Origin: Candidatus Dormiibacterota bacterium
Lineage (GTDB): Bacteria > Chloroflexota > Dormibacteria > Aeolococcales > Aeolococcaceae
DNA: 55,738 bases
Direction: 5' to 3'
NCBI GenBank assembly: GCA_049287785.1
Contig: JBAQGL010000007.1
Coordinates: 1 to 55,738 of the forward strand
The notes beneath the pieces are model-generated. The model saw only the letters and a program-made list of their open reading frames with translations. It did no database searches and was not told where the DNA came from. How positions within the stretch are numbered: position 1 is the stretch's first letter; each line of letters begins with the position of its first letter. This document shows positions 25,705-43,462 of the stretch, one piece after another. The position numbers were made by a program, and so were the translations under genes.

Positions 25705-25762
25705 TCAGCTCGCCAGCCGTACCGGTCGCACCGCGTCGTGAAGCCCCTCAGCCTGGGGTCCG
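25705..25762 (-). pseudogene. Relic of the 3' end of a DUF2442-type gene
   Basis: 25705-25749 matches 41749-41793 (the 3' end of the island DUF2442 gene) at 41 of 45 positions. The minus strand translates ...EGLHDAVRPVRLAS* versus ...EGLHDAVRPVQRAS*. Confidence 0.6.
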
Positions 25763-25815
25763 TGCCGGGAGAGGGAGTCGAACCCTCACGAGGTTGTCCT
25801 CGGCGGTTTTTGAGA
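25763..25815. repeat. attL: 53-bp direct repeat, a partial copy of the 3' part of tRNA-Leu(CAA)
   Basis: Identical base for base to 43565-43617. The sequence diverges at 25816 (g) versus 43618 (c). No tRNA 5' half is present. Confidence 0.9.
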
Positions 25816-25929
25816 GCCCGGTCCGAGCGTTTCCGCGTGCCACCGGGGGCCGGCGCGTATTCCGCAGACCCGTCGAACGTGTCTCCGCGTGCTGCTGCGG
25901 GGTGCGGGCTGATAGCGCCGTAGGGGTAC

Positions 25930-26368: not shown

Positions 26369-27448
26369 ATGGGTTTCAAGGTCAGCGCAACCCGACGCGA
26401 GGGCGCCGGATTGCCGACGGACACCAGGAAGCCCTTATCCGACCGCTTCGCAGCGTTGTTTGTTGGCCTTATCGTCGCCCTTTCAGTGAGCTTTATCGTT
26501 TCGATTGGCACTTCGAGAACGGTGCGAGCGGCCACGGCGCCGGCCTACACCGACTCGGACTATGTCGAAAGCCTGAATTACGGCAACTGGAATTCATACG
26601 GGTGCTCTGAGGTTCAGGCTGCTACGGCAGCGCACCTGACCACGATCTCGGTGATCCTGGATTTCGGACAACCGACCGACAGTGGGGGCCATTATGGGAC
26701 GACCATCTACGGCGCCGGCACGTTCGCTGTGTGGGACAGCAACGGACTCGGGATCCGAGCAGTCATCGTCCAGTTCCTTGACGGCTACTGGAATTGCCAC
26801 ACCACTAGTAGCCCTTTTATGACGTTGATCGTCGGCGTCAGTGCCATTTACAGCAAGATCAATTACAGCACCTACGAAAATGCCTACTGGATGGGCGAGG
26901 TGGTGACTGCCGAGGACACGTGGCTGCAAAACACCGGGTATATCTCGCTGATGTACACGGATGCGGGAAGCGACACCGAGACAAGTTCATCGTATGCGAC
27001 GTACAGTTACGTGAGTTCGTATCTCGGCAAGGAGTATGCTACCGATCCGAACAACTTTATCTTTGACTTTGGGGATGCGGGTAGCTGCCCAACGGGTAGC
27101 TATTCAGCGACTGGCAAGTGCGCCAACTGGACGCAAGGACAGATTCTTGACCTTTCGTGGCAGGAGATCTACGCACTGCCGCTACCAGAGGACTACAACA
27201 CAGTCCAGGCACAGGCACAGCAATGGTATTGGCTCAGTATCGGCAGCATCCGAACTGGGGATGGCCCGATACGTTTTGACGGTGAGTTAACGCAGTATCA
27301 GGCATGTCAGCAACGGGGCGGTTGCTCGGGTACGAATAATCTTCCGAGCACGGGCTGGAGCTTTCTCTACAATGAGATTTGGTCGAACACGAGTACACGT
27401 CCAGGCGACGTGATGTGGTGGTCGGATGATATCCGATATATCGGCTAA
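26369..27448 (+). CDS. Exported protein of unknown family (cassette gene A, 359 aa)
   Basis: AAGGAGG sits 7 nt upstream of the ATG. N-terminal anchor/signal FAALFVGLIVALSVSFIVSIG..VRA-AT. The mature part is rich in Y/W/G/T/S/N. No motif recognised. Confidence 0.7.
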   Translation: MGFKVSATRREGAGLPTDTRKPLSDRFAALFVGLIVALSVSFIVSIGTSRTVRAATAPAYTDSDYVESLNYGNWNSYGCSEVQAATAAHLTTISVILDFGQPTDSGGHYGTTIYGAGTFAVWDSNGLGIRAVIVQFLDGYWNCHTTSSPFMTLIVGVSAIYSKINYSTYENAYWMGEVVTAEDTWLQNTGYISLMYTDAGSDTETSSSYATYSYVSSYLGKEYATDPNNFIFDFGDAGSCPTGSYSATGKCANWTQGQILDLSWQEIYALPLPEDYNTVQAQAQQWYWLSIGSIRTGDGPIRFDGELTQYQACQQRGGCSGTNNLPSTGWSFLYNEIWSNTSTRPGDVMWWSDDIRYIG

Positions 27449-27461
27449 GGGGGATGACGAC

Positions 27462-28088
27462 ATGAGGCCTCAACGGGTGTTCAGCTGCGGCAAGGTCGTG
27501 AAACGCCTGCTCTATGGATGCCTGGCATGCGTGGCTGCGGGGACGATGGGTGCCGTGATCGTCGCTCATGCGGGAGGCAGCAGCCGTGCCGCGCAGATCA
27601 CTGGCCCTTCGTCGTATCTGGGCTCCTTGCCAGCATCAAAGCAACCAATTGTTGACCACATGAAAGCGATGATCGCCAAGGGCAATCCGCATCCAGCCGC
27701 CCCTGATGCCAATGCCTCGAAGGCTATCACGATAGCGCCGTGCACGAGGGACCTATCGCTGTTCATCAGGGGACTCACGGCTCCGCATAGCCAGATCGAC
27801 ATCCCTAACCTCCAGAACTACGTCTTCAGCAACGAGTGGGGAGCGCCCAACGGCGCTGAGTCCGTTATGGCCGGCGCGGCGGTGAGGACCGGCGCGGGGA
27901 TCGTCAGTGTCGAGCGTTGGAATCCGCCGACCGACTGCACGCCGACAGTGGCCGTCTACCAGGCCGCGCTCGGCAGCGGAATGTTGACGATCACTCGAGT
28001 CGCCCGAGGGGTGGTTTGGCTCGATGGCGCGGGGAGCTCCGTGTGGCAGTTCAGTTTCAACAGCGACAGCTTCCAGGAAGTCCCCTAA
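27462..28088 (+). CDS. Exported protein of unknown family (cassette gene B)
   Basis: Start chosen at ATG 27462 (MRPQRV), preceded by AAGGGGGA. Hydrophobic N-terminus LLYGCLACVAAGTMGAVIVAHA. Two Cys in the mature part. Confidence 0.6.
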   Translation: MRPQRVFSCGKVVKRLLYGCLACVAAGTMGAVIVAHAGGSSRAAQITGPSSYLGSLPASKQPIVDHMKAMIAKGNPHPAAPDANASKAITIAPCTRDLSLFIRGLTAPHSQIDIPNLQNYVFSNEWGAPNGAESVMAGAAVRTGAGIVSVERWNPPTDCTPTVAVYQAALGSGMLTITRVARGVVWLDGAGSSVWQFSFNSDSFQEVP

Positions 28089-28098
28089 ACTCAACTCG

Positions 28099-28632
28099 AT
28101 GCGTTATTGGGAGGCCGTGCTAGTCACGGCCGTGGTCACGGCCGTGGTCACGGCCGTGGCTGGTTGTGGCGGCACCTCAACGCCTAGTGGGACGCCTACT
28201 CCTGCCCCGAGCGGGTCGCCTTCGGCCAGCCCTGTTCCCACGCAGAGTCCCACGCCTGCTCCCACACCTACCACGGCGCCGCTGACCGAGGGACTGTCAT
28301 GGTCTGGAGCTGCGAGTGGCAGGCTCGCACAGGCTTACACGACCTGTGCGCCAAGCAGCCCCAACCTGATTGGGCTGGACGCTACTAACAACGGTGACCA
28401 AGTTCTGATTCCGATTCACGCCGCCGGAACGGTGACTGAACCTGCGAACAACTTGAGCGTCGAGCTCTACCTGTCAACCCCGGCCAGCGGCTTCACTCTG
28501 TTCTTGGCAGTCTCAGGGACGGTTATATACACCGGCGGTGGAGACACGGGCAGCATGGACGTGAGGCTCACTCCGCAGAGCAATACCTCGACTTCCGTGG
28601 CGATTCACATGAGTGGGGCGTGGCAGTGCTAA
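28099..28632 (+). CDS. Lipoprotein of unknown family (cassette gene C)
   Basis: MRYWEAVLVTAVVTAVVTAVAGC has the lipobox VAG-C. A Pro/Thr/Ser-rich linker follows, then a ~110-aa domain ending in Cys. Confidence 0.65.
   Translation: MRYWEAVLVTAVVTAVVTAVAGCGGTSTPSGTPTPAPSGSPSASPVPTQSPTPAPTPTTAPLTEGLSWSGAASGRLAQAYTTCAPSSPNLIGLDATNNGDQVLIPIHAAGTVTEPANNLSVELYLSTPASGFTLFLAVSGTVIYTGGGDTGSMDVRLTPQSNTSTSVAIHMSGAWQC
28123..28158 (+). repeat. Perfect 3 x 12-bp tandem repeat (gtcacggccgtg) inside the lipoprotein signal peptide
   Basis: Seen directly. It encodes VTAV-VTAV-VTAV. Confidence 0.9.
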
Positions 28633-29016
28633 ACGCCGGTCTCGGCTGGCTGCACTGACCGCGGTCGCATCGGCCACAATCGCGGCGGAGGCAGAAGACC
28701 CCGATCGCGCTCAGCGGATGATGTTTGGCTGTCGGAGGGCATCGTCACTCACTTCATCTATGACCCGAATCGCGGGTCGTTGGAGCAGATCTCCGGATCC
28801 AACGTGCTGCTCTACCACGTGGATCAGTCGGCTCGACACGAGTGCTCACCGACAGGTCAGGAAGTGTCGAGGAAACAGCTACCGGGGTGGTTTCAAGACC
28901 GGCAGGGAAGTGTTAGAGGATGCCGTGCAGGGTCGGCGTGAACTCGGGCGCAACGGCGGTGGTGCCGCCGGGTACCACTGCGTGCTGGCCGGTAGCGTCC
29001 CCAACTGGGGTATGAA

Positions 29017-29376
29017 ATGGGGTACGCCCGGCGGATGAGGACACCACAGCGCGGGTGCGGCTTCCATGCTGGGGCGACCCAGCTCACGGCCCAGCGCGAC
29101 CGTGGTGGCGATCGCATCGCCAACAACGCACTCTGGCGCATCGTCATGGTGCGCCTTAGCTGTGATCAGCGCACCAAGACCTACGTCGGCCGTCTCACCG
29201 CCGAGGGAATCGCCAAGCGCGACATCATCCGCTGCCTCGACGCTACGTCCCGCGAGGTGCTCCACGGGCTCCTCGCAACACCCCCGGCATCGACGCTCAC
29301 CAGTGCTCGACAAGGTATAGGAGCATCACGATTGACTCCGGGCGGAGACAGGCGTAACGTGCAGCCGTCAAGGTAG
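29017..29376 (+). pseudogene. C-terminal fragment of an IS110-family transposase (relic)
   Basis: ...QRDRGGDRIANNALWRIVMVRLSCDQRTKTYVGRLTAEGIAKRDIIRCLDATSREVLHGLL matches the conserved IS110 C-terminal pattern (RLNRGGDRxxNxAL..I...R......T..Y..R..AEGK...E..RCLKR..AREVY). The N-terminal DEDD domain is missing. Confidence 0.6.
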
Positions 29377-29436
29377 CTGCGAGCCCCGCGCCCGCACCTG
29401 TCGAGAAGGGATCAAGACCGCCCAGCACTAGGAGGT

Positions 29437-30168
29437 ATGCGGGTGAGAGGCACCCTCGTCATCCCCTTGTCTGTTGTTATCGCATTAAGCGTGATCGGTG
29501 CTGGCTCGACACAGCCGCCGAAGGTGCTGGCTGCCTCGTGCCCTGTGCCCGTGCACTACTACGGCTGGGCGAACTCGGGCTTCGGCACAACCATCGGTAC
29601 GGCGGCAACAACGACAACCTGGAGCGCCTACTCGGTGCAGAGTAGCCCGGCCGCTTTCTCTGACGAGGCGTCATGGCTTACACAAACCACGAGCAACGGC
29701 ACCTTGGAACCTCAGGCCTCTTCCATCGAGGGGGGATTCTACAGTGGGCAGGGAGTAAACCCAGCTTGGACGACAGCGATTCTGCCGTACTGGACCGAGA
29801 CGGATGGCGGCAACGAGCACGATTACGCGGCCGATGCGCTCGGAAAAGGTACTGGCGTAACGATCTACGTCGAAGGTCACTACTCTACTCAAGCTGCGAA
29901 GGTCGAAGTCGGCGGCTATTCATTCAATCTTGGCACCTACGTGGTGAACACGCCGCGGGGCAACTACGCTCAGGGTGAGGTGGATAGCAAAAATACTTCG
30001 ATGGGGGGAGGCAGTGGCGAGAGCTTTACCCAATATTTCGAGCCGGAGTCGGCGATCGGACAGTTCGGTCTTTGGGGAGCACTCACAGTCGGCTATAACT
30101 CGCCGTTTCTTGCCTCGAGGAGTAGCAGTTCGGTCTGGTCGAACTCCGGATACGGAAGCAGTTGTTGA
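29437..30168 (+). CDS. Exported protein of unknown family (cassette gene D)
   Basis: GGAGG lies upstream; the start is ATG 29437 or GTG 29443. Signal-like LVIPLSVVIALSVIGAGS. The mature part is rich in G/T/S/Y/W. Confidence 0.65.
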   Translation: MRVRGTLVIPLSVVIALSVIGAGSTQPPKVLAASCPVPVHYYGWANSGFGTTIGTAATTTTWSAYSVQSSPAAFSDEASWLTQTTSNGTLEPQASSIEGGFYSGQGVNPAWTTAILPYWTETDGGNEHDYAADALGKGTGVTIYVEGHYSTQAAKVEVGGYSFNLGTYVVNTPRGNYAQGEVDSKNTSMGGGSGESFTQYFEPESAIGQFGLWGALTVGYNSPFLASRSSSSVWSNSGYGSSC

Positions 30169-30911
30169 GACCAACGCGCACAATCCTCGCTACAGGGGCC
30201 GGGCTAATCGCGGCGTTTGCTGCTGGTCTTATCGTTGTCCTTGCCGCAAGGCATGGCACGGTGACACCAACCACCGGCGGCACTCGAGGCAGCAATGGAT
30301 CGCCTCCCACTGGGACGATTTCCCCGCTCTCAGCACAGGCGATCTCCAGCGCGTGCGGTCTTACTCCGGCTAGTTACTTGCCCAGCCCGACTGGATTCGC
30401 GATGATTGTGAATCAGTTGGACACGCAACTTCCTCTTCACAGCGCGCCAAATGACCCCCTGATTCAGGGCTTTCTGGGCGGCCGATTTGTGGGGTATCTC
30501 AACAACGCTGTGTTGACGCCTGCCAGATTGGGATCGCCAGCGCCAACTCCGCCGACGCTTCCCCTGGCGGGTGCGGTGGTCCGTGAAGTTCCTGGAGTGC
30601 TAGAAAGGTATGAGGGGCACTATCTGTTCGCCACCGACGCCGAAGCCAGCGCAATGGCTCAGCATTTTATCGTCTCGGAAGCTAATTACTCCACTGGTCA
30701 CCGGGTGGACCTCCAACTTGCGAGAGGCTTTGTGACATTCCAAGATACTGAGGGGCCGAATGACGGTCTCCATGAGCGGGCGGTTCTCGTTTATGGAAGC
30801 ACCGGCCGGGTGGCTCTCCAGCTGTCAATTCAAGGTGGGTCCTCAACAACCCCGATGGCTCTAAGGCCGACCATCTTGGAAGCAATCGCCCGCCTGCCAT
30901 TAGCTTGTTAG
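30162..30911 (+). CDS. Membrane-anchored or exported protein of unknown family (cassette gene E)
   Basis: TTG start overlapping the gene D stop by 7 nt. N-terminal TM ILATGAGLIAAFAAGLIVVLAA, then a Pro/Thr/Gly linker and a ~190-aa domain. Confidence 0.55.
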   Translation: MLRPTRTILATGAGLIAAFAAGLIVVLAARHGTVTPTTGGTRGSNGSPPTGTISPLSAQAISSACGLTPASYLPSPTGFAMIVNQLDTQLPLHSAPNDPLIQGFLGGRFVGYLNNAVLTPARLGSPAPTPPTLPLAGAVVREVPGVLERYEGHYLFATDAEASAMAQHFIVSEANYSTGHRVDLQLARGFVTFQDTEGPNDGLHERAVLVYGSTGRVALQLSIQGGSSTTPMALRPTILEAIARLPLAC

Positions 30912-30926
30912 GTTCGAGGGAGCGGC

Positions 30927-31598
30927 ATGAACTACCGAATAGTCGGTGCGATGTTTGCAGCAACTGCGCTCGGCGCGTTGACCGCTTTGATGATCACAGG
31001 GCACCCGACTGTGCCCCTGAGGGTTAATGAGCCGGCGGTCTCGTCGATCAAGGGCGCGGCCGCGGCTGTCCCACCCTGCGCCGACCGCGAGACGGTACTC
31101 GGCACCGTAGCAGCCCTTAAGTCGGGAGCGGATCCGACCGCGCTCAGGGGCACCGCGGTTCTCACCGAGAATCCATCTATATCGGGATCGCTTGGTCAAA
31201 CGCTCGTGTTCGGTTCTAACGTTCCGACGGCCGCTTCCGACCCAGGTTCGGTAGCTGCATCAGGCACTGTTTACGCTCAGAGCTCCCGTGCGTCGTTGCG
31301 CTCGTGCGAGTACCACCTCTCAGGGAGCACAGCCGACGCCGCTTACATCGCCTTGGCCAAGGGTGAGGCAGTTGCCGACGGGTTCGCGACTTCGGCGCAG
31401 CTCGATTCGGACGCGACTCTGTACTTTGTCAGTGACGATCCAACCGATTCCGATCGGCTGATTGTCACGCTTGATACCCTTGGGGCGTCGGTGCCGCAAG
31501 CCGATGGATCGACCGATCTGCACGCTTTGAAGACTTTCTTCGCATTGATCTCGGTGGGAAGCGGTCTTGTGACTGGGACAACGTCGGGCATTTGGTAA
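30927..31598 (+). CDS. Exported protein of unknown family (cassette gene F)
   Basis: GAGGGAG lies 6 nt upstream of the ATG. N-terminal hydrophobic IVGAMFAATALGALTALMI. Two Cys in the mature part. Confidence 0.6.
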   Translation: MNYRIVGAMFAATALGALTALMITGHPTVPLRVNEPAVSSIKGAAAAVPPCADRETVLGTVAALKSGADPTALRGTAVLTENPSISGSLGQTLVFGSNVPTAASDPGSVAASGTVYAQSSRASLRSCEYHLSGSTADAAYIALAKGEAVADGFATSAQLDSDATLYFVSDDPTDSDRLIVTLDTLGASVPQADGSTDLHALKTFFALISVGSGLVTGTTSGIW

Positions 31599-31891
31599 GT
31601 CTCGACACGCCGCGCCAATGCGCTGATACGTGGCGGTTCGAAGCACGAGTGGGCGACCTGTCGATCTCACCCCTCACGCGGGTAACGCCCTGGGGGTAGC
31701 GTCGGGGTCCCAAAAGCAATCTGGCCGGCGATTTGCGTCAGGTTTCCTGAGATGCCAATACACCCTTCGAACGCCTAGCCCGCCGTCATTCTTGAGACGC
31801 TTGCCCTTGGCACGAGAGGTAACGAGTGACCCGGGGAGACGGCGGACTTCTACGCTGAGAATCGAATTCAAAAACGGCACTGAAACCCCGA

Positions 31892-31938
31892 TGGTGGAGC
31901 GGGGGAGCTCGAATCTCCGACCTCTGCCGTGCGAGGGC
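31892..31938 (-). pseudogene. tRNA-Ala(CGC)-like 3' fragment ending in CCA; no 5' half
   Basis: The minus strand reads GCGCC-CTCGCAC-GGCAG-AGGTC-GGAGA-TTCGAGC-TCCCC-CGCTCCACCA. This gives an anticodon-loop-like CTCGCAC, T-loop TTCGAGC and an Ala-like GCTCCACCA end. It is 1 nt short of a canonical T-arm/acceptor. No matching 5' acceptor strand lies upstream. Confidence 0.5.
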
Positions 31939-32286
31939 GCGGGTACGAATTCGAATACGGGACGGATTGCGAGTGCCTGTTTGGCGGTCCGCATCGAGGG
32001 GATCAATCGTCGGCCCACCAGTCCGAGTTCCTGTACGACGAGGTCCTCCACCTTGGCCGAGAGCTCCTCCAGGTTCAGATCCAGCTTCCCGGAACGTCGA
32101 TTGGGACGCGGACGTCCCCACCAGTCGACGACAATCACCTGCTGTGAGCGGGATGGGATATCGAACGACCGGCGTCGGCGCATCGCCGCGCCGCCGGTTG
32201 GCAGCTCCGGCGACACCAGGATGGGGTAACGACATCACTGGGATGGGAAGCGATAACCCGGGACACGGCGTCGGCCGAGGGTAGCC

Positions 32287-35200
32287 ATGAGCACCTCGAC
32301 GGTTCTAGTCGGCGACTCGGGGACCGGCGATCGTAGACAGAAGATCCGGTCGGCGATTGCCGATTGGAAGAAGCAGCTTCTCGACCTCTCAGGGCGGAAC
32401 GCGCTTCTGTATTTCAAGGACTACAAACTCAGTACGCTCGACCTGTCTCAGGCAAGCCCTACTGGACTCGACCGACTGCTCGCTCGCGAATGGATCTCGC
32501 TGAGCTCACTCATTGGTGTTCATGGCGACGCCAACATGTCAAAAGGTCTTCGCGCTATCCGCAAGAAGGCCCTCGAGAACTACGAAGAGCGAGGAATTCA
32601 AACCTTGTTCTTTACGTGGGGGATGGTTTCGTGGCGCCCCGAAGATGAGTCGACAAAGTCCGCCCCTCGTGCGCCTCTGCTCCTATTTCCAGCCGAACTT
32701 AAGGCCAGTGATGCGCGGGAGGACGACCACCGTATCCAGCTCGTTGGCGATCCAGCGGTCAACCCGACACTCGTTCACTACCTCACAAGTACGTTCGGTG
32801 TGAACCTCGAGATTGACAGCATCGGTACGCTGCCGGGAATCGAAGGCGAGGTGGACACTCGAGACGAGGTTGGAACCATCATCGAATGGTTCGTGCGGTC
32901 GGTCAGCGGAAAGGTCCCCGATTTCTCCTACACCGATCAGCTCACGCTCGCGAACTATGCCTACCAAAAGATGCCGATGGTTGAGGATCTGGACGCCGCA
33001 GAGGAGCTGCTGATCACCAGTGACCTGGTGGCTGCAATAGCCGGAGACAGACAGGCTCAACAGTCGTGCACGTCGTCGATCGGCGATGAGCCGCCGCCGC
33101 CCGACTACATCCCGCCTGCCGACGAGTTCCTAACGCAGGATGCTGATAGCACACAAAACGCAGCCATCAACGCGGCTGTAGCCGGGCGCAGTCTGATCAT
33201 CGAGGGCCCCCCTGGTACCGGCAAGAGTCAGACCATCGCCAACCTGATCTCCGTCTTTGTCGGACGAGGCAAGCACGTGCTGTTCGTCGCCGAGAAACGC
33301 GCCGCCATCGACGCCGTCATGTCGCGCTTGGAGCGAGTTGGCCTCTCCGATCTGGTGCTCGATCTGCACAGTGGCTCGAGGTCCAAGCGGGGCCAAGTGC
33401 AGGCACTCGAGGATCTGAGAGAGCGACACGTCGCCACGATCCCGGTGGCGCAGGCATACGCGAACGACTTAGTCGCCGCTCGGAGTCGATTGGTCGACAA
33501 CGATCGCGCGATGAATGAAGTCCGAGCTCCATGGAACGTCTCGCTTCAAGAACTGTATGGGCGAATGCTCGAGTTCGCGACATCCCAGCCGGTTGCTCAT
33601 CGTTTGTCCGCCGCAGAGACGGACGCGACCTCGGCTGAGGATGTGGGTCGCCTTGCAGACGCCGCCGGATCCTGGGCTCACGCCGGAGGATCGCTCGTCC
33701 CTCACGGCACATCGGCGTGGCGTGATGCGCAGCCACGCTCGGGTGCCGATGTGGAGGCGTGCCTTGACGCCGCTCAGCGACTCACACACGACTTGATCCC
33801 TGCCCTTGTCGTCGAACTTCAGCAGGAGTGCAGACCCTTCTTGCCCGATGCCACAGTGACGCTGGCCCGCTGCGTGCAGCTTGAGTCGTTAGCAACTCGT
33901 GCTGCGAAGCTCAGCGCGGAGGTTGTCCCCGCGTTCTACGCCATCGACCTTCCGGTATTACTCGGCGACATCTCGGCGGCGCATAAGGGGCGCATCTCCC
34001 GGCTACTGCGGACAATGACATCCGGCCGGTATCGGCTCGGTGTGCGTGTGGCGCGACGCAACCTACTCGAAAAGGCGAAGGCACCTGCTTCAGAGGTCTA
34101 CGCGGTCGTCCAGTCCGCCGAGTCGTTGCGAACTGACTGGATATCGGCCGGCGGTCAGGGCGCCCCCGAGCGGGCCGGCGGTCTCGAGCGGCTACGGACC
34201 CTGATCCGCGCAACTGGGGAGGCGATCCAGCGGATGAACGCGGTCATCCCGCAGGCCTCGCTGGACTCACGCACGCTCGCACAGCTCGACACCTGGGCGA
34301 AGTGGGTCCTGTCGGATCGAGACACGGCGGTGAGGATTCCGGCGATGAGGGAATCGGCAGCGCAGCTGCGTGCAGCTGGATTTGGCCCACTCCTCAACGA
34401 GCTCATCGCTGAGCGCGCGAGCGTGGAACGAGCTCGCGAAGCCGTCGCCCTGTGCTGGCTTCAATCGGTCCTTGGTCACATCGAGGCACATGACCCGAAC
34501 GTGCGCCATCTCGGTCGCCCCCAGCAGGACGAGGTTGCCGCGCGGTATCGCCAACTGGACCACCGACACATCGAGGCGACACCGCGCCGGATCCGGCGTC
34601 GAGCTGCCGAGGCCGCAATCCGAGCCGAAGACGTCTACCGTGAGGAGGCGCTCGCCCTGAAGGCCGCCGTCCGGAGACGTAAGGGCATTCCGCCGCTGCG
34701 CGAGATCTTCGCGCGGTCGCCAAACGTCATCACCGCTTGGGCGCCATGCTGGACGATGAGCCCCTTATTGGTCAGCCAGATGCTTCCGGCGACCGGGGTG
34801 CAGCCATTTGACCTGGTCATCTTCGATGAAGCCAGTCAGGTGCTTCCGGCTGACGCTATTCCGGCGATCGCGCGCGCAAAGCAGGCAGTCGTCGCCGGCG
34901 ATCGTCGCCAGCTTCCGCCAACCACCTTCTTTGCCACGTCGACCGACGAAGATGCCGAACCTGAGGCCGAAGAGTCCGCCGACCTCGCCTTTGTTCAGGG
35001 CTATGAGTCGGTCCTCGACGTCATGGACATCTTTCTGCCGAGCAAAGATCTGATGTGGCACTACCGCAGCGAGGACGAGCGTCTCATCGCCTTCTCTAAC
35101 GCGGAGCTCTACGGTCGACGGCTTACGACGTTCCCCGGCGTCTCCTACGATGACGTGATCCGCCACGTCGTCGTTGACCCTGAGGATGCCACCACCAGCG

Positions 35201-36336
35201 AGTCCGCTCGTGGCGAAGTCGAGGCGGTCGTTCGATTGGTGCTTGAGCACGCCGAGACCCAGCCTCAGCGGTCACTCGGTGTCATCACCATGGGTACTCC
35301 ACACAAGCTGCGCATCGACGAGGCATTGCGGCGGGCGCGAGTGTTCCGTTCTGATTTGGACGCGTTCTTCAACGACGTCGCGTCGCTGGAGCCATTCTTT
35401 GTCAAGAACCTAGAACGCGTCCAGGGCGACGAACGCGACTGCATTATCGTGAGTATCGGTTATGGCAAGGGCCCTGATGGACGCATCCTCTACAACTTTG
35501 GTCCGGTCAATAAACAAGGCGGTGAGCGTCGTCTTAACGTCGCCGTGACTCGGGCGAAGCATTCGCTCGTCCTTGTCTCGACCTTCCGCGGCGACGAACT
35601 CGACGAAGCCAAGTGCCAAACGACGGGGATGAGCTTGTTGCGCAAGTACACCCTGTATGCTGATCGCGGAGGAAAGCTCGACCGCAATGCTCCGGCGGTC
35701 GCCGAGATCAACGCGTTTGAACGCGACGTCGCCGATGCACTCACGCGGAGAGGAATGGTCCTGCACCCACAGTACGGCGTGTCGGGGTATCGCATTGATT
35801 TTGTCGTGGCCCATCCGTCAATTCCGGATCGATGGGTGTTGGCGATCGAATGTGATGGAGCGACATATCACTCGGCTCAGAGTGCGAGAGATCGCGACCG
35901 GCTGCGGCAGGAACATCTGGAGCGTCTTGGATGGAGGTTCCATAGGATCTGGTCGACCGAGTGGTTCAAGAACAAGCCCAGCGAGGTCGACCGAGCGTGG
36001 ACAGCCCTTCAGGACGCGATCAGGGCAGACGAGCCTGTTCCGCCTCTGCAGAACGTAACTCCAGCAATTCCTGATCGTGGGCTAAGTGCTGGTGTCGAGG
36101 ATCCAACGCCGCTTCGCGGCCAGAGACCCTACGTGTCCACCGGCCGTGGAATTGACTCGTACAGCGACTGGGAGATCACGAGAATAGTTCAGTGGATCAA
36201 GTCCGACAGCCGCTTGCGCTCAGAGGACGAGCTTGTCTCAGCTGTGATGGATGATCTCGGTTTCACGCGCCATGGGTCCAAGATCGTTGAACGGATCACA
36301 AGTATCATCCGCTATCTGGAAGGGCGCCCGAAGTAG
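32287..36336 (+). CDS. Large DUF4011 / Upf1-like SF1 helicase / DUF559-type PD-(D/E)xK endonuclease / DUF3320-like protein (1349 aa)
   Basis: N-terminus IADWKKQLLDLSGRNALLYFKD is DUF4011-like. Walker A GPPGTGKS (33205-33228). Motif II FDLVIFDEASQV, then VVAGDRRQLPPT, MWHYRSEDERLIAFSN, VQGDERDCIIVS and GERRLNVAVTRAK. Nuclease module GYRIDFVVAH...WVLAIECDGATYHSAQSARDRDRLRQEHLERLGWRFHRIWSTEW. Confidence 0.9.
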   Translation: MSTSTVLVGDSGTGDRRQKIRSAIADWKKQLLDLSGRNALLYFKDYKLSTLDLSQASPTGLDRLLAREWISLSSLIGVHGDANMSKGLRAIRKKALENYEERGIQTLFFTWGMVSWRPEDESTKSAPRAPLLLFPAELKASDAREDDHRIQLVGDPAVNPTLVHYLTSTFGVNLEIDSIGTLPGIEGEVDTRDEVGTIIEWFVRSVSGKVPDFSYTDQLTLANYAYQKMPMVEDLDAAEELLITSDLVAAIAGDRQAQQSCTSSIGDEPPPPDYIPPADEFLTQDADSTQNAAINAAVAGRSLIIEGPPGTGKSQTIANLISVFVGRGKHVLFVAEKRAAIDAVMSRLERVGLSDLVLDLHSGSRSKRGQVQALEDLRERHVATIPVAQAYANDLVAARSRLVDNDRAMNEVRAPWNVSLQELYGRMLEFATSQPVAHRLSAAETDATSAEDVGRLADAAGSWAHAGGSLVPHGTSAWRDAQPRSGADVEACLDAAQRLTHDLIPALVVELQQECRPFLPDATVTLARCVQLESLATRAAKLSAEVVPAFYAIDLPVLLGDISAAHKGRISRLLRTMTSGRYRLGVRVARRNLLEKAKAPASEVYAVVQSAESLRTDWISAGGQGAPERAGGLERLRTLIRATGEAIQRMNAVIPQASLDSRTLAQLDTWAKWVLSDRDTAVRIPAMRESAAQLRAAGFGPLLNELIAERASVERAREAVALCWLQSVLGHIEAHDPNVRHLGRPQQDEVAARYRQLDHRHIEATPRRIRRRAAEAAIRAEDVYREEALALKAAVRRRKGIPPLREIFARSPNVITAWAPCWTMSPLLVSQMLPATGVQPFDLVIFDEASQVLPADAIPAIARAKQAVVAGDRRQLPPTTFFATSTDEDAEPEAEESADLAFVQGYESVLDVMDIFLPSKDLMWHYRSEDERLIAFSNAELYGRRLTTFPGVSYDDVIRHVVVDPEDATTSESARGEVEAVVRLVLEHAETQPQRSLGVITMGTPHKLRIDEALRRARVFRSDLDAFFNDVASLEPFFVKNLERVQGDERDCIIVSIGYGKGPDGRILYNFGPVNKQGGERRLNVAVTRAKHSLVLVSTFRGDELDEAKCQTTGMSLLRKYTLYADRGGKLDRNAPAVAEINAFERDVADALTRRGMVLHPQYGVSGYRIDFVVAHPSIPDRWVLAIECDGATYHSAQSARDRDRLRQEHLERLGWRFHRIWSTEWFKNKPSEVDRAWTALQDAIRADEPVPPLQNVTPAIPDRGLSAGVEDPTPLRGQRPYVSTGRGIDSYSDWEITRIVQWIKSDSRLRSEDELVSAVMDDLGFTRHGSKIVERITSIIRYLEGRPK

Positions 36337-36799
36337 GCTGCACGTCCGCTCCGAACGGAGCCAGCGTCTGTCGCCCCGAAGGCGCTCTTCGTACACGCCA
36401 CCGATCAGCGTCCTGCCGAACAGCTCGACGGACAGCTGGTGACGGCGGCTAGAGCGTTATGGCCTCGCTGTGAGAGGCGATCCCGAAGGCGGCCCCGAGC
36501 ACGGTCAAGGTCGTGAGCACGACTGGCTCCTCGCCGCTGACCTGACGCTGGCGCCATGCGCGAACAGTGTCGCTGACAGTGACGATGCGGGGCGGCGTCG
36601 CCGGGACGGAAGGGGTGAGCGCTCGTGGTCATGGCGGTGTGCTCGTCAATCACGGTGTTGGTAGGCTGCACCGCCAACTTAAGGGGCGTTCTGCGAAACG
36701 GCCCCCGCTGTATGAGGATCGTCACTGTGAGCTACGCGCCGAACGCCACAACGCGGACTCCCGTGGCCGTAGCGATCCTTACATTGGACTCCCGCCCGC

Positions 36800-37684: not shown

Positions 37685-40630
37685 TTACCACGCCGTGAGC
37701 TCGGGTGACATCTCCTGCCCGCGCTCGAACTCCAGCTGCGAAGCTTCCAGCTGCGCATCGATCTCGGGGGTGAGCCAACCCGCGACGGCCTTGCCCCCGG
37801 GGTGGTTGTGCGGCCCGCCGGCGGCGTCCTCCGCCTTGATGCGGTCCACCGCGCGGGCAAGCCGCTCGTGCGCCGTCTCGTCGGACATGCCCCTCTCACG
37901 CAACCAACCGTGCGCCTGGTCGTAGGCACGCTGAGCCACGAGGCGGTCGATCTCCTCCCCGGCCTCGACCCGGGTCGCCTCCTGGGCCAGCTCGGATCCG
38001 CCGAGTATCTCGACCAGGGCACGCTGTCGATCGGTGGCCAAGTCCCGGAGGTCGTCCTCGACGGTGATCCGCTCGGTCGTCTCGTAGCGCTCCGGGTAGT
38101 CGAGCGCCGACTCCTTCAACTCGCTGCGGGTCCACGCCTGCACGGTGCGCTCCTCGGCGGATCGACTCGTTTCCTTCCAGTGCTCGACGCCGAGCGTGTC
38201 CCGCTCGGGTGGTGCGAACACCTCGTAGTAGTGGGTGGCCAGGGTGGCGCGCGACATCGCCGTGTACGCCCACTCCCGGGTGGCGCCCTCGGATCCCACC
38301 ACAAGGGCGATGTCGGCGGTCATCCCCTGTGCCTTGTGCACGGTGAGCGCGTAGCCACGGTCGATGGTGTCGTAGTGGGTGGTGTCGAGGGTCAGCTGAC
38401 GCTTGTCCGGTCGCTCCAGGGTGAGCGTCTGGCGCTCGACGTCGACCGCGGTGACCACGCCGCGGGTGCCGTTGCTGACCGCACCACTGCGTTCGTTGGC
38501 CAGGCAGATGACCCGGTCGCCGACCTGGTACTCCTTGTCGCCGACGGTCAGCGCCGGGCCGTGGACTCTCCCCTCGGCCACCGAACGGGCATGCGCCAGC
38601 TCGTTGAGGGCGGCCACCTCGTCGCGACGCCGGGCGAGAATGACCGTGTTGAGCCCGCCGGCCTCGAGCCGGGCGTGGTCCTCGATCACCTGGACCTGGC
38701 GCTCGGCCACCGAGTGGGCGTCATGGATGCGGTCGTAGCGCTCGTACTCGCGGTACGCCGCGCGCGCCTCACCGTCGCGGAGCAGCTGCAGTGTCGCCCG
38801 CTCCCAGTCGTAGTGCTGGCGGATGTTCTCGTGCAGCGCCACCCTGCCGATGTGATCGCTCAGGGTGCGCATCGGTGCGCCCGCCTCGATGGGCTGGAGC
38901 TGGAAGGGATCGCCGACCACCACGAGCTTGGCCTCGTCGCGCGCCGCCAGGGAGACCAGCTCGGCGAGTTGGCGGTCACCGAGCATCCCCGCCTCGTCGA
39001 CGACGAGGACCCCGCCGTAGGGGAGGCGCTCGACCTGGAGCTGGTGGAGTCTCGCCGCCACGGTGGTTGAGGCGATCTCCGAGCCTTCCTCGAGGAGCTC
39101 GGCGGCGCGTCCCGCCAGAGCGCAGCCGACCACCTCGACCCCGGACGCATCGAAGGCTTCGCGGCAGACCTCGAGCGCGTAGGTCTTGCCGACCCCGGCG
39201 TCCCCCTCGATGACGAGCACGCCCGCGGGGCTGAGGCAGACCTCCTGGATCATGGCCTTCTGGTCCGCGGTGAGCGTGCGACGCGTAGCCATCGCCGCAG
39301 CGACCGTGTCGGCGCGGGCCATCCCGACGCCCGCGCCGGCACGCGCCTGGGCCGTCGCCACCATGCCCCGTTCCACCGCGAGCATCTCCGGCGTGGTGTA
39401 TCGAAGGTCATGCCCGGTCTCCCTCCAGCGCAGCATCGCCTCCGGCTCGGTCTCACCCTCTCGGAGCCGGGGTGGCAGAGGCTGCACCGACTCACGGTCG
39501 GCGAGGATCCAGTCGGCGGTCGCCTCGAGCTGCTGGCGGCTCATGCCCAGAGGCGCGTGCGAGGCCACGGTACGGATGATGTCGCGGCGGGTGAAGGTCG
39601 CCTGCCGAGCGGTGAGCCCATGCACACCGAGGATGTCCACCGCGCGCTGCACGTCGAGACGCCGCGGCTCGAGCGCATCGGGCTCGCGGCCGAACACCGC
39701 CTGCACCGTCTCGCCGTCGAGTCCCACGCTCGCGGCACGCTCGTGCCAGCGGGCGAACAGATCCTCGGTGGCCGCGACCTCGTGCTTGCCCTCGCGGGTG
39801 TCGAGCGTCGCCACCTCGCGCCCCGACCGTGTGGTCACGTCATATGCAGCCGCCGCGGCGTCGATCTGGAGCGACCTACGCGAGAACTCACGCCGCTGTG
39901 CGGCGGTGACGCCGACGATGGAGAAGCAGCCCTTGCCATCGACCATGGTGGAGATCCCCAGCTCGCGAACCAGGCGGTCGCGCCACTCCGCCTGAGCGAT
40001 GGCGCCCGCAGCAGCCGCGTGCTGGTACAGCGGTTCACTGTGCAGCTGGCTCCAGCTCCCGTCGGGTCGCTGCGTCCACGTCGGGACGGTGATGTGCGTG
40101 TGCAGCTGCGGGTCGACGGTCACGATGCCGGTGGCCGGATCGGTGACCGGGCGTGCGGTGCGGTGCACGAACTCGGGCATGACCAGCTTCGCCCGAACCG
40201 CCTCGGTGGTCTTGGTCTCGGCGTTGTGCTGGCGTGCCCAGCCGGCGTTGGCCTGGAGATACTCGGCCGCCGCATGGACTCCCTCGCCGTGGATGCGCAG
40301 GATGGTGGATCTTGTGCGCTCGTCGCCGAGCGCGTAGAGGATGCTCACGTCCTTGGGTGCTGACACCGTCACGTCGAAGGCGACGACCGTCTGCCTCCGC
40401 CAGTGTTTGCCGAGCTCCTCACCCGTCCGCGGATGAGTCCCGCTGAGCACCGCGGCGAAGTCGGTGTCGGTCACCTCGCCGCGCAGACCCAATACTTCCG
40501 CACCGGGTCCGCTCCATCGTCCCGGCGACTCGCCGCGAGCGGTGTAGTACTCGAGTTGCTGCTGCGCAACCGCCTCGCGCAGGTACCGCACCGCCTGCTC
40601 GACGCTGGTGAGCTTGCCGATCGAGATCAT
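37685..40630 (-). CDS. MobF-family conjugative relaxase (TrwC/TraA-like) fused to an SF1 helicase
   Basis: N-terminal relaxase MISIGKL....A.RYL......EYYTARGESPGRW, FDVTVSAPKDVS and DPQLHTHITVPTW (His-triad region). Helicase Walker A IEGDAGVGKT, plus VVDEAGM and a C-terminal YALTVHKAQGMT. Confidence 0.9.
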   Translation of the reverse strand: MISIGKLTSVEQAVRYLREAVAQQQLEYYTARGESPGRWSGPGAEVLGLRGEVTDTDFAAVLSGTHPRTGEELGKHWRRQTVVAFDVTVSAPKDVSILYALGDERTRSTILRIHGEGVHAAAEYLQANAGWARQHNAETKTTEAVRAKLVMPEFVHRTARPVTDPATGIVTVDPQLHTHITVPTWTQRPDGSWSQLHSEPLYQHAAAAGAIAQAEWRDRLVRELGISTMVDGKGCFSIVGVTAAQRREFSRRSLQIDAAAAAYDVTTRSGREVATLDTREGKHEVAATEDLFARWHERAASVGLDGETVQAVFGREPDALEPRRLDVQRAVDILGVHGLTARQATFTRRDIIRTVASHAPLGMSRQQLEATADWILADRESVQPLPPRLREGETEPEAMLRWRETGHDLRYTTPEMLAVERGMVATAQARAGAGVGMARADTVAAAMATRRTLTADQKAMIQEVCLSPAGVLVIEGDAGVGKTYALEVCREAFDASGVEVVGCALAGRAAELLEEGSEIASTTVAARLHQLQVERLPYGGVLVVDEAGMLGDRQLAELVSLAARDEAKLVVVGDPFQLQPIEAGAPMRTLSDHIGRVALHENIRQHYDWERATLQLLRDGEARAAYREYERYDRIHDAHSVAERQVQVIEDHARLEAGGLNTVILARRRDEVAALNELAHARSVAEGRVHGPALTVGDKEYQVGDRVICLANERSGAVSNGTRGVVTAVDVERQTLTLERPDKRQLTLDTTHYDTIDRGYALTVHKAQGMTADIALVVGSEGATREWAYTAMSRATLATHYYEVFAPPERDTLGVEHWKETSRSAEERTVQAWTRSELKESALDYPERYETTERITVEDDLRDLATDRQRALVEILGGSELAQEATRVEAGEEIDRLVAQRAYDQAHGWLRERGMSDETAHERLARAVDRIKAEDAAGGPHNHPGGKAVAGWLTPEIDAQLEASQLEFERGQEMSPELTAW

Positions 40631-40957
40631 CGCGGAAACGCGTCCTGCACGAGCTTCAGCGTAGGGAGAAAACGCCTACAGAGCGCTTACTTTTTCGGAA
40701 CGTTTGATCTGGACAAAATCAGCGATGCAACTGTGTGTGTGTCAGGGTCGGCGATGCGTGTGCGCGAGGCAGTGAAGGCGGTGCAGACGGACGCGTGAAG
40801 CGGGTGTGCGTCTGTCGAAGGTGAGAGGAGAAGGCCGGCGCGCGGAGGACCGAGAGGTGATGCCGAGGAGCCTTCGGTGCGAGCAGCGCGGACCGAACTC
40901 GCGCAGCGACCGACACGGGCGCTGACCGCGAGGTGGAGTTCACAGCACGAGCGGACG

Positions 40958-41107
40958 CGACGTTCGCGAACAGCGCGACGCGCGCGAATAGCGCGGTGCG
41001 CGCGAACCTCGCGAAGTGCGCTGGACGCGCGACGTCTGCCGGAAGCGCGATGTGCGCCGGAATCGCGAGGTGCGCTGGAATCGCGATATGCGCGCAATTC
41101 GCGCGAT
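40958..41107. repeat. About eight degenerate tandem repeats of 18-20 bp (consensus GTGCGCyGGAAtCGCGAn) upstream of the relaxase gene
   Basis: Best units are 41052-41069 gtgcgccggaatcgcgag and 41070-41087 gtgcgctggaatcgcgat. Flanking units decay progressively. All six reading frames show 6-aa periodic Arg/Ser text. Confidence 0.8.
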
Positions 41108-41567
41108 CCGCTCTACTCGCATGACACGTGGAAGGCGCGAATGCCGCTAAGCAGCTTTCACCGTAGGAAGTGTGTCAACGTAGTGCGTACGCTCCCCGGG
41201 CGGATGCGTCCTGAGCCATCAGTCACCCACGTCCTGGAACCGCGGTGTCAAGTAACTCTCGGACTTTTTACATGCCGAGGCTTGCTAGAAAAATGTAGGC
41301 GCTACGTAAGCAAATACATGGCATGCTCGTGCCATGGCTATCGCCGATGTGTCGCCGGGTACCGGCTATGTGCGCGGGAATCTGCGCGCGCATCAGACGA
41401 AGCTCCCTTGGGGTTCTGATGAGCTGGTGTCTCATCAAGGAGCACCCGGGATCCATGTTGCCACGGACCCACGGCGCCAACGAGCAACGCCCACCACCCC
41501 AGTGCCCTTGCTCGAGTCGGCCGCGCCGACACCTGTTGACATTGCGCCTGCATCGACGCGCACTCCG

Positions 41568-41729
41568 ATGCTGCTCACCGTTCGCGACGTCGAAGCGGAG
41601 CTGCAACTCGGTCGTACGCGAACCTACGAGCTGTTGCGCTCGGGCTCCATTCCCGTTGTCCGCGTCGGACGCGCACTCCGCGTGCCGCGCGATGCGCTGC
41701 GCCGCTGGGTCGACGAGCAGACCGCGTGA
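41568..41729 (+). CDS. xis: Excisionase-family / MerR-like helix-turn-helix DNA-binding protein
   Basis: MLLTVRDVEAELQLGRTRTYELLRSGSIPVVRVGRALRVPRDALRRWV is the typical excisionase-type HTH. The ORF could start earlier (41334), but that extension is low-complexity. Confidence 0.75.
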   Translation: MLLTVRDVEAELQLGRTRTYELLRSGSIPVVRVGRALRVPRDALRRWVDEQTA

Positions 41730-41748: not shown

Positions 41749-42000
41749 TCAGCTCGCCCGTTGTACCGGTCGCACTGCGTCGTGAAGCCCCTCCGGATCG
41801 AGGTCCGCACCGTTCGGCCACACCAGCGTGCCCAGCTCTGGATCCACGCTCACGCTGTTGAACTGAGCAATGTCACGGAGCGGCTCGAACATCTCACCCC
41901 ACAGCTCGGCGGCCAGGTCGATGTCGCCCACCATCCCGTCGCTGAACGTGAGCCGGAGACGGTACTCACCGAGGCGCTCAACGCCCGTGACCTTGACCAT
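41749..42000 (-). CDS. DUF2442-domain protein
   Basis: The 83-aa text MVKVTGVERLGEYRLRLTFSDGMVGDIDLA......F.PL.D...F..V.VDPELGTLVWPNGADLDPE matches the DUF2442 pattern. Confidence 0.75.
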   Translation of the reverse strand: MVKVTGVERLGEYRLRLTFSDGMVGDIDLAAELWGEMFEPLRDIAQFNSVSVDPELGTLVWPNGADLDPEGLHDAVRPVQRAS

Positions 42001-42009
42001 CTCCCAATC

Positions 42010-42279
42010 CTATGCGAGCGGCTCGATGGACGCCAGCGCCGTGCGTTCGATCACCCGTTGCCAGTTGTCTCGCAGCTCCTGCTCGTGCAGGGTCGCCCAT
42101 TCCATGACATGCCCAAGCGCGCGAGCGGGCAGCGAACCGTCAAGCACCACCAGCGGCTCGATCCCGATCGAAGCCTCATGCTCTCCATAGGTCGCGTGAA
42201 AGTGGGCGGCATGGTGTTGCCCGCCGGTCTCCCAGTACATGGTGATGACGATGCCGTAGAAGGCGCTGATCCGCGGCAC
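42010..42279 (-). CDS. DUF4160-domain protein
   Basis: The 89-aa text MPRISAFYGIVITMYW.......HFHA.YGEHEA matches the DUF4160 N-terminal pattern. It starts 2 nt after the integrase stop. Confidence 0.75.
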   Translation of the reverse strand: MPRISAFYGIVITMYWETGGQHHAAHFHATYGEHEASIGIEPLVVLDGSLPARALGHVMEWATLHEQELRDNWQRVIERTALASIEPLA

Positions 42280-42280: not shown

Positions 42281-43462
42281 TCAACCCGTGGTGATCAGTC
42301 GGGTGAGCCGGTCGGCCGCGTCGTCGTGCAACTCCTGCAGGACGTCGGCGTACGTGTCGGCCGTGATGCCGATCGTGGAGTGTCCGAGCACACTGCTGAC
42401 CACCTTCAGCTCCGTCCCGCTCGCCAGCATCAGGGTCGCGGCGGCATGGCGCAAATCGTGGAAGCGACGCACGGTCAGGCCGGCTCGGCGAAGGCCCGTC
42501 TCGAACCGATGGGTCATCCCGGTCGGCTCCACCGGATGACCGGTGGGGCGCGTGAACACCAGCCCAGCGATCGGCTCGTGCCATGCCGATCCGATGTGGA
42601 GGCGAGCCTCGCGCTGCCGCTGTCGCTGGACTGCGAGCAGCTCGACCAGGGGATCGGGAATCCGCAAGGTCCGCCGAGACCGCTTCGTCTTTGGCTCGAG
42701 GATTTTGAAGAGCATCTCCGGGTCGGATCGCTGGTCACGAGGGATGCGGTGCAGTGCGCCGGTGACGCGCACCACCTTGCGCTCCAGGTCGACGTCGTCC
42801 CAGCGCAGTCCGAGGATCTCGCCCTGACGCATGCCGAGATACAGGGCCGTGCCCACGACCGCCTCGAGCTCGGTACCGCGAAAGGCGTCGAGGATCGCAC
42901 GCGCTTCCTCGGGGCGCACGGAGGCCGCCCTCGTCGCGGACACCTCGAGGGGTTCGGCCAGGGCTGCGGCGTTGCGAGCCACCGTGCCCCATCGCTGCGC
43001 GTCAGCCAGGGCCGAACGCAGGACCGCGCGGGCATGGTTGACGGTTCGAGGCGCAAGGCCGCCGGCGACCGCCTGGCGCATGGCGACGTTCACCTGCTGC
43101 GGGGTCAGCTGCGCCAGCTTGACCCTCCCCAACAGAGGAATCAGCTGGTACTTGATGAGGCTGCGGTACCGCCGCATGGTGGTCGGGCGGATGCTCGTTT
43201 GCCCCTCGATCCAGGTGCCGAGAAAGTCGCCGACCGTCTGCCGGTCGGAGGACGGTGCCACCCCGAGAGCGAGCCCGCGAATTGCCGCGTTCATCTTCGC
43301 GACCGCATCGGCGCGGCTCTTGCCGTAGAGGCTGCGCCGGACCTGGCGACCCCTCGTGTCGAAGCCGACCGTGACGCGCGCCTCCCACTGTCCCGGGCGT
43401 CGCTCTCGGATCGTCCCTTCGCCAAGCCCTCGGCGCTTGCTCGTCACCCCTTCCTCCAACAC
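42281..43462 (-). CDS. int: Tyrosine-type site-specific integrase
   Basis: N-terminus GEGTIRERRPGQWEARVTVG. Catalytic region ALYLGMRQGEILGLRWDDVDL, FHDLRHAAATLML and LGHSTIGITADTYADV (R...HxxR...Y). It lies 102 nt from the tRNA-Leu 3' end. Confidence 0.92.
   Translation of the reverse strand: MLEEGVTSKRRGLGEGTIRERRPGQWEARVTVGFDTRGRQVRRSLYGKSRADAVAKMNAAIRGLALGVAPSSDRQTVGDFLGTWIEGQTSIRPTTMRRYRSLIKYQLIPLLGRVKLAQLTPQQVNVAMRQAVAGGLAPRTVNHARAVLRSALADAQRWGTVARNAAALAEPLEVSATRAASVRPEEARAILDAFRGTELEAVVGTALYLGMRQGEILGLRWDDVDLERKVVRVTGALHRIPRDQRSDPEMLFKILEPKTKRSRRTLRIPDPLVELLAVQRQRQREARLHIGSAWHEPIAGLVFTRPTGHPVEPTGMTHRFETGLRRAGLTVRRFHDLRHAAATLMLASGTELKVVSSVLGHSTIGITADTYADVLQELHDDAADRLTRLITTG

Follow-up and report, generated by a model that had tools for sequence, protein, structure and literature searches.

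The 55,738-nt stretch of DNA analysed here (contig JBAQGL010000007.1, positions 1 to 55,738; hereafter the window) carries, on an integrated mobile island, a gene for a protein of 1349 amino acids (aa) that joins a DUF4011 region, a superfamily 1 (SF1) helicase and a nuclease (Table 1). What would such a helicase-nuclease gene do on a mobile island? It is probably a self-contained defence cassette of the Hhe/ProA superfamily, carried as cargo by an integrative mobilisable element inserted at tRNA-Leu.

The helicase-nuclease gene and its product

The open reading frame (ORF) is preceded by a GAGGG Shine-Dalgarno-like element 6 nt upstream, while promoter and terminator scans around the gene gave nothing exceeding shuffled expectation. 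Domains were called with Pfam-A at its gathering thresholds (GA). Four of them lie above GA within the one polypeptide: DUF4011 (aa 30-166, 67.2 bits, GA 22.2), AAA_11 (74.2 bits, in two separate stretches), AAA_12 (aa 969-1098, 42.9 bits) and the Vsr-like restriction-endonuclease domain MTES_1575 (aa 1144-1241, 126.3 bits, GA 38.2). AAA_30 and AAA_19 also match the first part of helicase domain 1A, and DUF559 gives a marginal match (21.4 bits against a GA of 20.6). A preliminary description of this DNA had read the protein as a single-gene fusion of DUF4011, a Upf1-like SF1 helicase and a Vsr-like nuclease, and had named DUF4011, AAA_11, AAA_12 and DUF559/MTES_1575 as Pfam families to look for; all of them were found, and the description of the fusion was correct. 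The label "Upf1-like" also holds, because a sequence search of the PDB returned only Upf1-like SF1B helicases, with IGHMBP2 first (E 7e-13), followed by DNA2, Upf1/NAM7 and Sen1; the matches to IGHMBP2, DNA2 and Upf1 cover aa 268-358, a stretch that spans the first part of domain 1A. No solved relative of Hhe or ProA appeared in this search. In NCBIfam, the IGHMBP2-family model TIGR00376 aligns with aa 838-1099 at 99.2 bits, under its equivalog cut-off.

The SF1B motifs Q, I, Ia, II, III, IV, V and VI are all intact. The helicase motifs GPPGTGKS, DEASQ, GDRRQLPP, YRSEDERLIAFSN, QGDERD and VAVTRAK start at aa 307, 847, 871, 926, 1046 and 1085, and the nuclease motifs IDFVV, AIECDG, TYH and LGW at aa 1170, 1186, 1193 and 1214. 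All ten were thus found in order, in agreement with the earlier claim that helicase and nuclease motifs are intact. The key residues (K313, D847/E848, Q875, R927, Q1046, R1089, D1171, E1188, D1190 and H1195) are at least 97% conserved in an alignment of 81 homologues and invariant in an alignment of 24 sequences, and the last four of them make up the catalytic D...ExD...H of the Vsr-like nuclease.

Compared with its orthologue at the locus named L003, the gene has a ratio of nonsynonymous to synonymous substitution rates (dN/dS) of 0.097 over 1346 codons, so the ORF is not a chance one. Purifying selection acts on all of its parts, with dN/dS values of 0.083 for DUF4011, 0.013 for helicase 1A, 0.116 for the insertion described below, 0.045 for helicase 2A, 0.088 for the nuclease and 0.186 for the C-terminal tail. 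Every region of the protein is therefore below 0.2, and the uncharacterised regions are under as much constraint as the catalytic ones.

Two of these regions were modelled confidently by AlphaFold2 (AF2) with family alignments. The N-terminal model (aa 1-290) is alpha/beta, with a confidence score (pLDDT) of 86.5; that of the 480-aa insertion between motifs Ia and II (aa 345-835) is all alpha, with a pLDDT of 90.3. The insertion has no Pfam match and is gap-free among the aligned homologues. Foldseek searches against the PDB (to April 2026) gave no significant fold match for the DUF4011-region model (best E 0.4, TM<=0.19) or for the insertion model (best E 0.2, TM<=0.25). A single marginal BFVD match in the fold search was discarded, being probably a homologue fragment.

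Relationship to the Hhe and ProA families

The best PADLOC match of the protein is PDC-S37 (875.7 bits, E 1.9e-263, in three stretches), and Hhe (PDLC02194) is matched at 462.3 bits (E 8e-139). MkoA and MkoC (95.8 and 74.3 bits) cover helicase segments only, and Nhi gave no PADLOC match at E<=0.01; the suggestion that the protein might belong to Nhi or Mokosh is thus not upheld. The NCBIfam models give 846.6 bits for ProA (NF058533, E 4.8e-254), below its equivalog cut-off of 1500, and 610.9 bits for Hhe (NF042953, E 5.3e-183), below its cut-off of 2000. The best stretch on the Hhe model pairs aa 691-1236 with model positions 1128-1675 of 1797. Bona fide ProA proteins from GTDB genomes (L054, L088, L077 and L072) score 1518-2359 bits on the ProA model, while 24 relatives of similar, short length all stay below both the Hhe and the ProA cut-offs (best ProA E 1.5e-281). 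The PDC-S37 model has 1550 columns, and the alignment of the window protein to it is offset by about 356 below that to the ProA model; this offset, together with the similar score, suggests that PDC-S37 corresponds to the ProA family without its N-terminal extension. No source paper for ProA or PDC-S37 was found in the literature. The Hhe system is reportedly to be credited to Gao et al. 2020.

Short forms and long forms (1500-2270 aa) separate in 100/100 bootstraps of a neighbour-joining tree of the helicase-2A and nuclease core, with the window protein on the short-form side. The two groups also differ in their C-termini. DUF3320 follows the nuclease in the cut-off-passing ProA proteins L072 and L088 (57-66 bits, Pfam). 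A local DUF3320-like hidden Markov model (HMM) matched L054, left L077 unmatched, and detected 37 of 46 long forms as against none of 29 short forms. In the window protein, for which the preliminary description had suggested a DUF3320 module, Pfam gave no match to it even at E<=10 in the C-terminal 128 aa. DUF3320 was accordingly rejected as the C-terminal module, and no other Pfam family matched the tail at this threshold. A different, conserved module makes up the last ~64 aa, and a tail HMM matches the extreme C-termini of short forms. The end module can be recognised at the very C-terminus of some long forms as well, and the tail aligns with long-form C-termini with an hhalign probability of 95.7% (E 9e-9).

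As judged by these sequence models, the window protein is related to both Hhe and ProA and is a member of neither, because it scores under both curated cut-offs and falls into the separate short-form clade. This clade is, on the same grounds, a group of proteins of ~1350 aa without DUF3320 within the superfamily of DUF4011/SF1B helicase/Vsr-like nuclease proteins. The kinship with Hhe that had been proposed for the protein stands in part: the homology is clear and experimental support for Hhe has been published, but the window protein is not a Hhe orthologue, its score of 610.9 bits being far under the cut-off of 2000.

Relatives, contexts and cassette mobility

At E<=1e-10 the protein has more than 6600 database matches, of which only three are near ones (90, 88 and 70% identity), the remainder being ~42% identical. 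The DUF4011 region alone recruits 3164 clusters at 50% identity (E<=1e-3). GTDB genomes contribute at least 594 matches, from many bacterial phyla and some archaea, with none above 48% identity among the matches listed. Most short-form relatives come from Actinomycetota.

The two nearest copies were compared with the window at the DNA level. With L003 (90% protein identity), the blastn match consists only of positions 32268-36339 (86.9%), and with L004 (88% protein identity) it is confined to 32082-36344 (87.8%). Since DNA homology stops at the ends of the gene, the gene moves as a bare cassette. L003 is surrounded by an integrase with an HTH_17 protein, IS481, a Multi_ubiq/ThiF/BubE set and a FokI-cleavage protein, and the contigs L004-L007 carry genes for an integrase, a FokI-cleavage protein and a CAP12-PCTIR TIR protein around their copy, together with a Terminase_4 gene. 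The nearest copies thus occupy two unrelated mobile contexts beside other defence-type genes. Among more distant relatives, one of 42% identity adjoins BilABCD and DarT, and one of 41% adjoins a separate RNase_T gene and an integrase.

When neighbouring ORFs within 7 kb were clustered over 85 loci, no family occurred in more than six of them, and the commonest was a tyrosine integrase. The other six-locus "partner" cluster, next to long-form genes, proved to be an artefact made of antisense ORFs within the ProA N-terminal extension. The absence of a recurrent neighbour, together with homology ending at the gene boundaries, establishes that the gene has no conserved partner, and supports the proposal that it acts as a single gene. 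Defence-like or mobile genes within 3 kb of 25 short-form loci include those for an SLFN-type helicase, N6_Mtase, PDDEXK_13, Fic, RNase_T and a transposase. Long forms are present on 478 plasmid records, among which conjugative and mobilisable plasmids predominate. Phage records gave one near-full-length match, on an 11-kb metagenomic contig, and two short partial matches in Liberibacter phages.

A DEDDh (RNase_T) exonuclease is fused behind the C-terminal tail in the short forms P0030, P0031, P0051, P0072 and P0112 (aa 1395-1547 in P0072), and in L010/L011 (8297-9445) it is encoded by a separate gene immediately upstream of another relative. It appears to be a recurrent optional accessory.

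The tRNA-Leu island

The gene lies on an island of 17.8 kb bounded by two copies of the 3' half of a tRNA-Leu gene. A 19-mer from the 53-bp repeat has only two sites in the window, attL and attR, against 0.04 expected. Because these tRNA-derived repeats flank an integrase, an HTH_17 protein and a relaxase, the island is an integrative mobilisable element at tRNA-Leu. No type IV secretion system or FtsK-like transfer gene was detected among the ORFs scanned. There are only three copies of the 9-mer GTAGGGGTA in the window (25920-25928, 43471-43479 and 43482-43490; 0.04 expected in 55.7 kb), all of them inside the island, within ~160 bp of its two ends. The 9-mer is a candidate arm-type integrase-binding site, which suggests that the island can still excise.

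The gene had been described as an insert between the relaxase module and a tRNA relic. The relic is real and the island mobile, but the relic is attL, 6.5 kb upstream of the gene, and so is not adjacent to it; the relaxase gene is 1.3 kb downstream. A second tRNA relic close upstream of the gene, at ~31885-31950, where the DNA resembles a tRNA 3' end, was rejected, as ARAGORN found none and Rfam gave none at E<=1 and chance matches only at E<=10. The sole tRNA relic is therefore attL. The low G+C content noted earlier is borne out: it is ~0.59-0.66 in the helicase-nuclease gene, as against 0.67-0.72 outside the island. At third codon positions (GC3) the gene has 0.70, host genes 0.76-0.89, and the island integrase and relaxase 0.84-0.88; the gene and the cargo block to its left together span 0.58-0.66 in G+C and 0.59-0.76 in GC3. 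The composition is thus mixed, in that the island backbone looks host-adapted and the cargo looks imported.

The host, an uncultured soil bacterium, is by its DnaE (encoded at 15541-19152 and 87-88% identical to proteins of Candidatus Dormibacterota metagenome-assembled genomes, MAGs) a member of Dormibacterota and not an actinobacterium. A host relative, L092, whose DnaE is 90% identical, is syntenic with the window over 5550-22780, after which synteny is broken. Its next ~6 kb have no match to the island region and its genes there are unlike the right flank of the window. The region 22.8-45.6 kb is thus variable, since synteny already ends at 22780, and the comparison with L092 yielded no clean empty att site.

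Table 1. Position of the helicase-nuclease gene, its parts and the island features in the window.
Feature	Position	Strand	Basis
attL: perfect 53-bp copy of tRNA-Leu 3' half, left island end	25763-25815		direct repeat
Exchangeable single-gene cassette, DNA common to both nearest copies	32268-36339	+	blastn
Helicase-nuclease gene, ATG start, 1349 aa	32287-36336	+	ORF, Pfam, PADLOC, NCBIfam, dN/dS
N-terminal region aa 1-285 including DUF4011, alpha/beta	32287-33141	+	Pfam, AF2
Helicase 1A part 1, aa 286-350: Q motif, Walker A, motif Ia	33142-33336	+	Pfam, PDB matches
Walker A GPPGTGKS	33205-33228	+	residues invariant
All-helical 480-aa insertion, aa 351-830, between motif Ia and motif II	33337-34776	+	AF2
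Helicase 1A part 2 and 2A, aa 831-1100: DEASQ, GDRRQLPP, YRSEDERLIAFSN, QGDERD, VAVTRAK	34777-35586	+	Pfam, TIGR00376
DEASQ	34825-34839	+	motif position
Vsr-like PD-(D/E)xK endonuclease MTES_1575, aa 1144-1241	35716-36009	+	Pfam, conserved residues
C-terminal tail, aa 1246-1349	36022-36333	+	conserved ~64-aa end module; not DUF3320
TrwC-type relaxase with AAA_30 helicase, mobilisation module	37685-40630	-	Pfam TrwC 231, AAA_30 170.8 bits
Excisionase-like HTH_17 protein	41334-41729	+	Pfam HTH_17 41.3 bits
DUF4160/DUF2442 gene pair directly beside integrase	41749-42279	-	between att repeats
Tyrosine integrase	42281-43462	-	Pfam Phage_integrase 81.7 bits, Phage_int_SAM_3
tRNA-Leu(CAA); 3' half 43565-43617 = attR, right island end	43564-43648	-	ARAGORN, repeat

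Proposed function and alternative explanations

The kinship to antiphage families, the intact active sites, the selection on the protein, the mobility of its gene and the published data on Hhe together favour a role in defence. Hhe is active against lambda, T3, T7 and PhiV-1, and the E1731A mutation in the Vsr-nuclease active site of the E. coli protein abolishes antiphage activity (10.1101/2022.06.16.496414); a phage anti-hhe gene also exists (10.1101/2024.04.14.589459). T7 genes of DNA metabolism are candidate triggers of Hhe, suggesting that what these genes do, and not their direct recognition, activates it (PMC11482910).

A possible course of events for the window protein is the following. 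With no methyltransferase or other partner, the N-terminal DUF4011 region, proposed here as a sensor or regulatory module, and the 480-aa helical insertion would hold the protein inactive on host DNA. The DNA metabolism of an invader would produce replication or recombination intermediates with single-stranded DNA, on which the Upf1-like motor could load and translocate 5'->3' at the expense of ATP (K313, DE 847-848). The C-terminal Vsr-like endonuclease (D1171, E1188, D1190 and H1195) would then cleave the DNA and halt replication of the invader, possibly at a cost to the cell.

Several observations weigh against this defence role. The curated cut-offs of both named antiphage families are missed and DUF3320 is absent, and no published experiment on the window protein or the short-form clade was found in the literature. 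Upf1-like motors also act on RNA, so that DNA as the substrate is not fixed. The picture of the neighbourhoods is mixed, as the immediate neighbours at the 25 short-form loci also include ordinary genes. At five Intrasporangiaceae-like loci (Flexivirga, Nostocoides, Terrabacter, Angustibacter and an uncultured actinomycete MAG) the relative lies beside mscL and housekeeping genes, and the loci have overlapping neighbour clusters and local synteny in common, so relatives are not always mobile. In addition, the copy on L004-L007 lacks 1 nt at about codon 110 (near L004:9938, corresponding to window position ~32614), which splits it into a 137-aa DUF4011 ORF and a 1219-aa ORF. The protein of this copy is recorded on six contigs; the four shown, from four Joint Genome Institute (JGI) samples, are all split, so the frameshift looks real and not like a sequencing error, and the gene is evidently dispensable there. 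Finally, in P. aeruginosa a large DUF4011 gene belongs to the core genes and flanks a hotspot of defence genes (PMC10250203). The earlier expectation that orthologues would not be fixed core genes accordingly holds for the closest copies, which are in differing mobile contexts, but less so for some lineages, in which relatives have semi-conserved chromosomal surroundings (PMC10250203).

Three other explanations were considered, all of them less well supported than defence. The first, which we consider unlikely, is that the gene serves the mobile element itself (the island or another element with the gene), by competition with rival plasmids or elements, by addiction-like stabilisation or in its own DNA processing (excision, replication or transfer). 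The closest contexts are always with integrases or on plasmids, the plasmid matches are mostly to conjugative and mobilisable plasmids, and the gene is near the TrwC relaxase. However, the cassette has been swapped between differing backbones, one of them a relaxase island and the other an element that includes a Terminase_4 gene, which argues against a role in the DNA processing of any one element, and the island relaxase already has its own helicase. This explanation also overlaps with that of defence, because anti-plasmid activity is a form of defence.

Secondly, the protein could be a cellular enzyme of DNA repair or genome maintenance, for example a helicase-nuclease of Dna2-like or Vsr-like type acting on nicks, that came onto the island by chance. 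JGI pipelines label relatives as "very-short-patch-repair endonuclease", the closest solved helicases (IGHMBP2, DNA2, Upf1 and Sen1) are eukaryotic enzymes of genome or RNA maintenance, some relatives reside in conserved chromosomal neighbourhoods, and the P. aeruginosa gene mentioned above is core (PMC10250203). On the other hand, the distribution is patchy, GTDB representative genomes holding no copy above 48% identity among the matches listed; the host relative L092 is collinear only as far as 22780 and its next ~6 kb are unlike the island region; and the gene has a foreign composition, moves as a cassette and is frameshifted in one near copy. The best family matches, moreover, are antiphage models. 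This explanation seems quite improbable.

The last one, a decaying non-functional relic of imported DNA, is largely refuted already and can hardly be maintained, since beside the frameshifted near copy and a flank (31600-32286) without a credible gene stands a window copy that is full length, has every catalytic motif and evolves at the dN/dS given above.

A bolder form of the defence explanation, to which we also give little credence, would make the DUF3320-less short-form clade a mechanistically distinct immune enzyme, in which the DUF4011 region and the insertion would be a new sensor licensing motor and nuclease, with the DEDDh exonuclease as an add-on effector in some members. Its targets could be replication intermediates of the invader, or even invader RNA or R-loops, which are conceivable because of the kinship with Upf1, Sen1 and IGHMBP2.

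Other features of the island and its flanks

The cargo block to the left of the gene (26369-31598, + strand) consists of ORFs without Pfam or PADLOC match, of which three consecutive ones (29437-30168, 30162-30911 and 30927-31598) have hydrophobic, signal-peptide-like N-termini. Further right, an antisense ORF at 31674-32216 was considered as a transposase fragment, which was unsupported, with no Pfam match. A degenerate 18-nt tandem array of ~5-7 copies (40956-41103), also scored at periods of 27 and 54 nt, lies in the non-coding DNA that separates the start of the relaxase gene from the excisionase-like gene; it could be an origin of transfer (oriT) or an iteron region. The DUF4160/DUF2442 pair looks like a small toxin-antitoxin-type module of two genes.

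Just outside attL, a Fic-domain gene (24470-25528, - strand) matches PADLOC SoFic at 109.9 bits. In the gap between this gene and attL, a 45-nt stretch (25705-25749) shares 91% identity with the DUF2442 gene at the 3' end of the latter (41749-41793). It looks like what is left of a related island that sat earlier at this tRNA-Leu and lost its integrase end by deletion, in which case the Fic gene may be cargo that stayed behind. On the other side, directly outside tRNA-Leu (43596-45637), there are an ORF for an extracytoplasmic function (ECF) sigma factor, whose predicted start overlaps tRNA-Leu, and an IS110-family transposase. Three diverged copies of a 43-nt unit, spaced by ~190 nt (22989-23412), lie inside a 216-aa ORF (22859-23509), which thus encodes an internally repeated protein without family match.

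Comparison with known systems

If the protein is indeed a defence enzyme, immunity of the Hhe/ProA single-gene type would gain a clade of compact proteins with a separate phylogenetic position, common among soil bacteria of the Actinomycetota, Acidobacteriota and Chloroflexota-related groups, and would extend to the uncultured phylum Dormibacterota. The locus illustrates the movement of such a gene, as a bare cassette, among mobile elements that are unrelated. Moreover, biochemistry and cryo-electron microscopy of the superfamily could conveniently use the 1349-aa protein, a minimal form that has neither DUF3320 nor the N-terminal extension.

Among known systems, ProA is the best-scoring named family and has the same order of parts, in which DUF4011 is followed by an SF1B helicase split by a large helical insert and then by the MTES_1575 nuclease; ProA-type long forms, too, are apparently single-gene. 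It differs from the window protein in its size of 1600-2230 aa, its longer insert, its frequent N-terminal extension of ~350 aa, the DUF3320 of the ProA proteins L072, L088 and, by the local HMM, L054, and its position outside the short-form clade. Hhe likewise unites DUF4011, an SF1 helicase and a Vsr-like nuclease in one polypeptide and is clearly homologous over aa 691-1236, but only the C-terminal 40% aligns well and its model has 1797 positions as against 1349 aa. Nhi and Mokosh also couple an SF1-type helicase to a nuclease in antiphage defence, but the protein belongs to neither family by the PADLOC results above. DNA2 similarly combines an SF1B motor with a nuclease of the PD-(D/E)xK type, whereas the nuclease of the window protein is C-terminal and Vsr-like. 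With the Upf1-like SF1B helicases it shares all SF1 motifs, and it differs from them by the 480-aa insert between motifs Ia and II and by DUF4011, both without a match among solved folds. Taken together, these likenesses and differences make the gene a plausible defence gene and a shorter cousin of Hhe and ProA, and not a new category of system.

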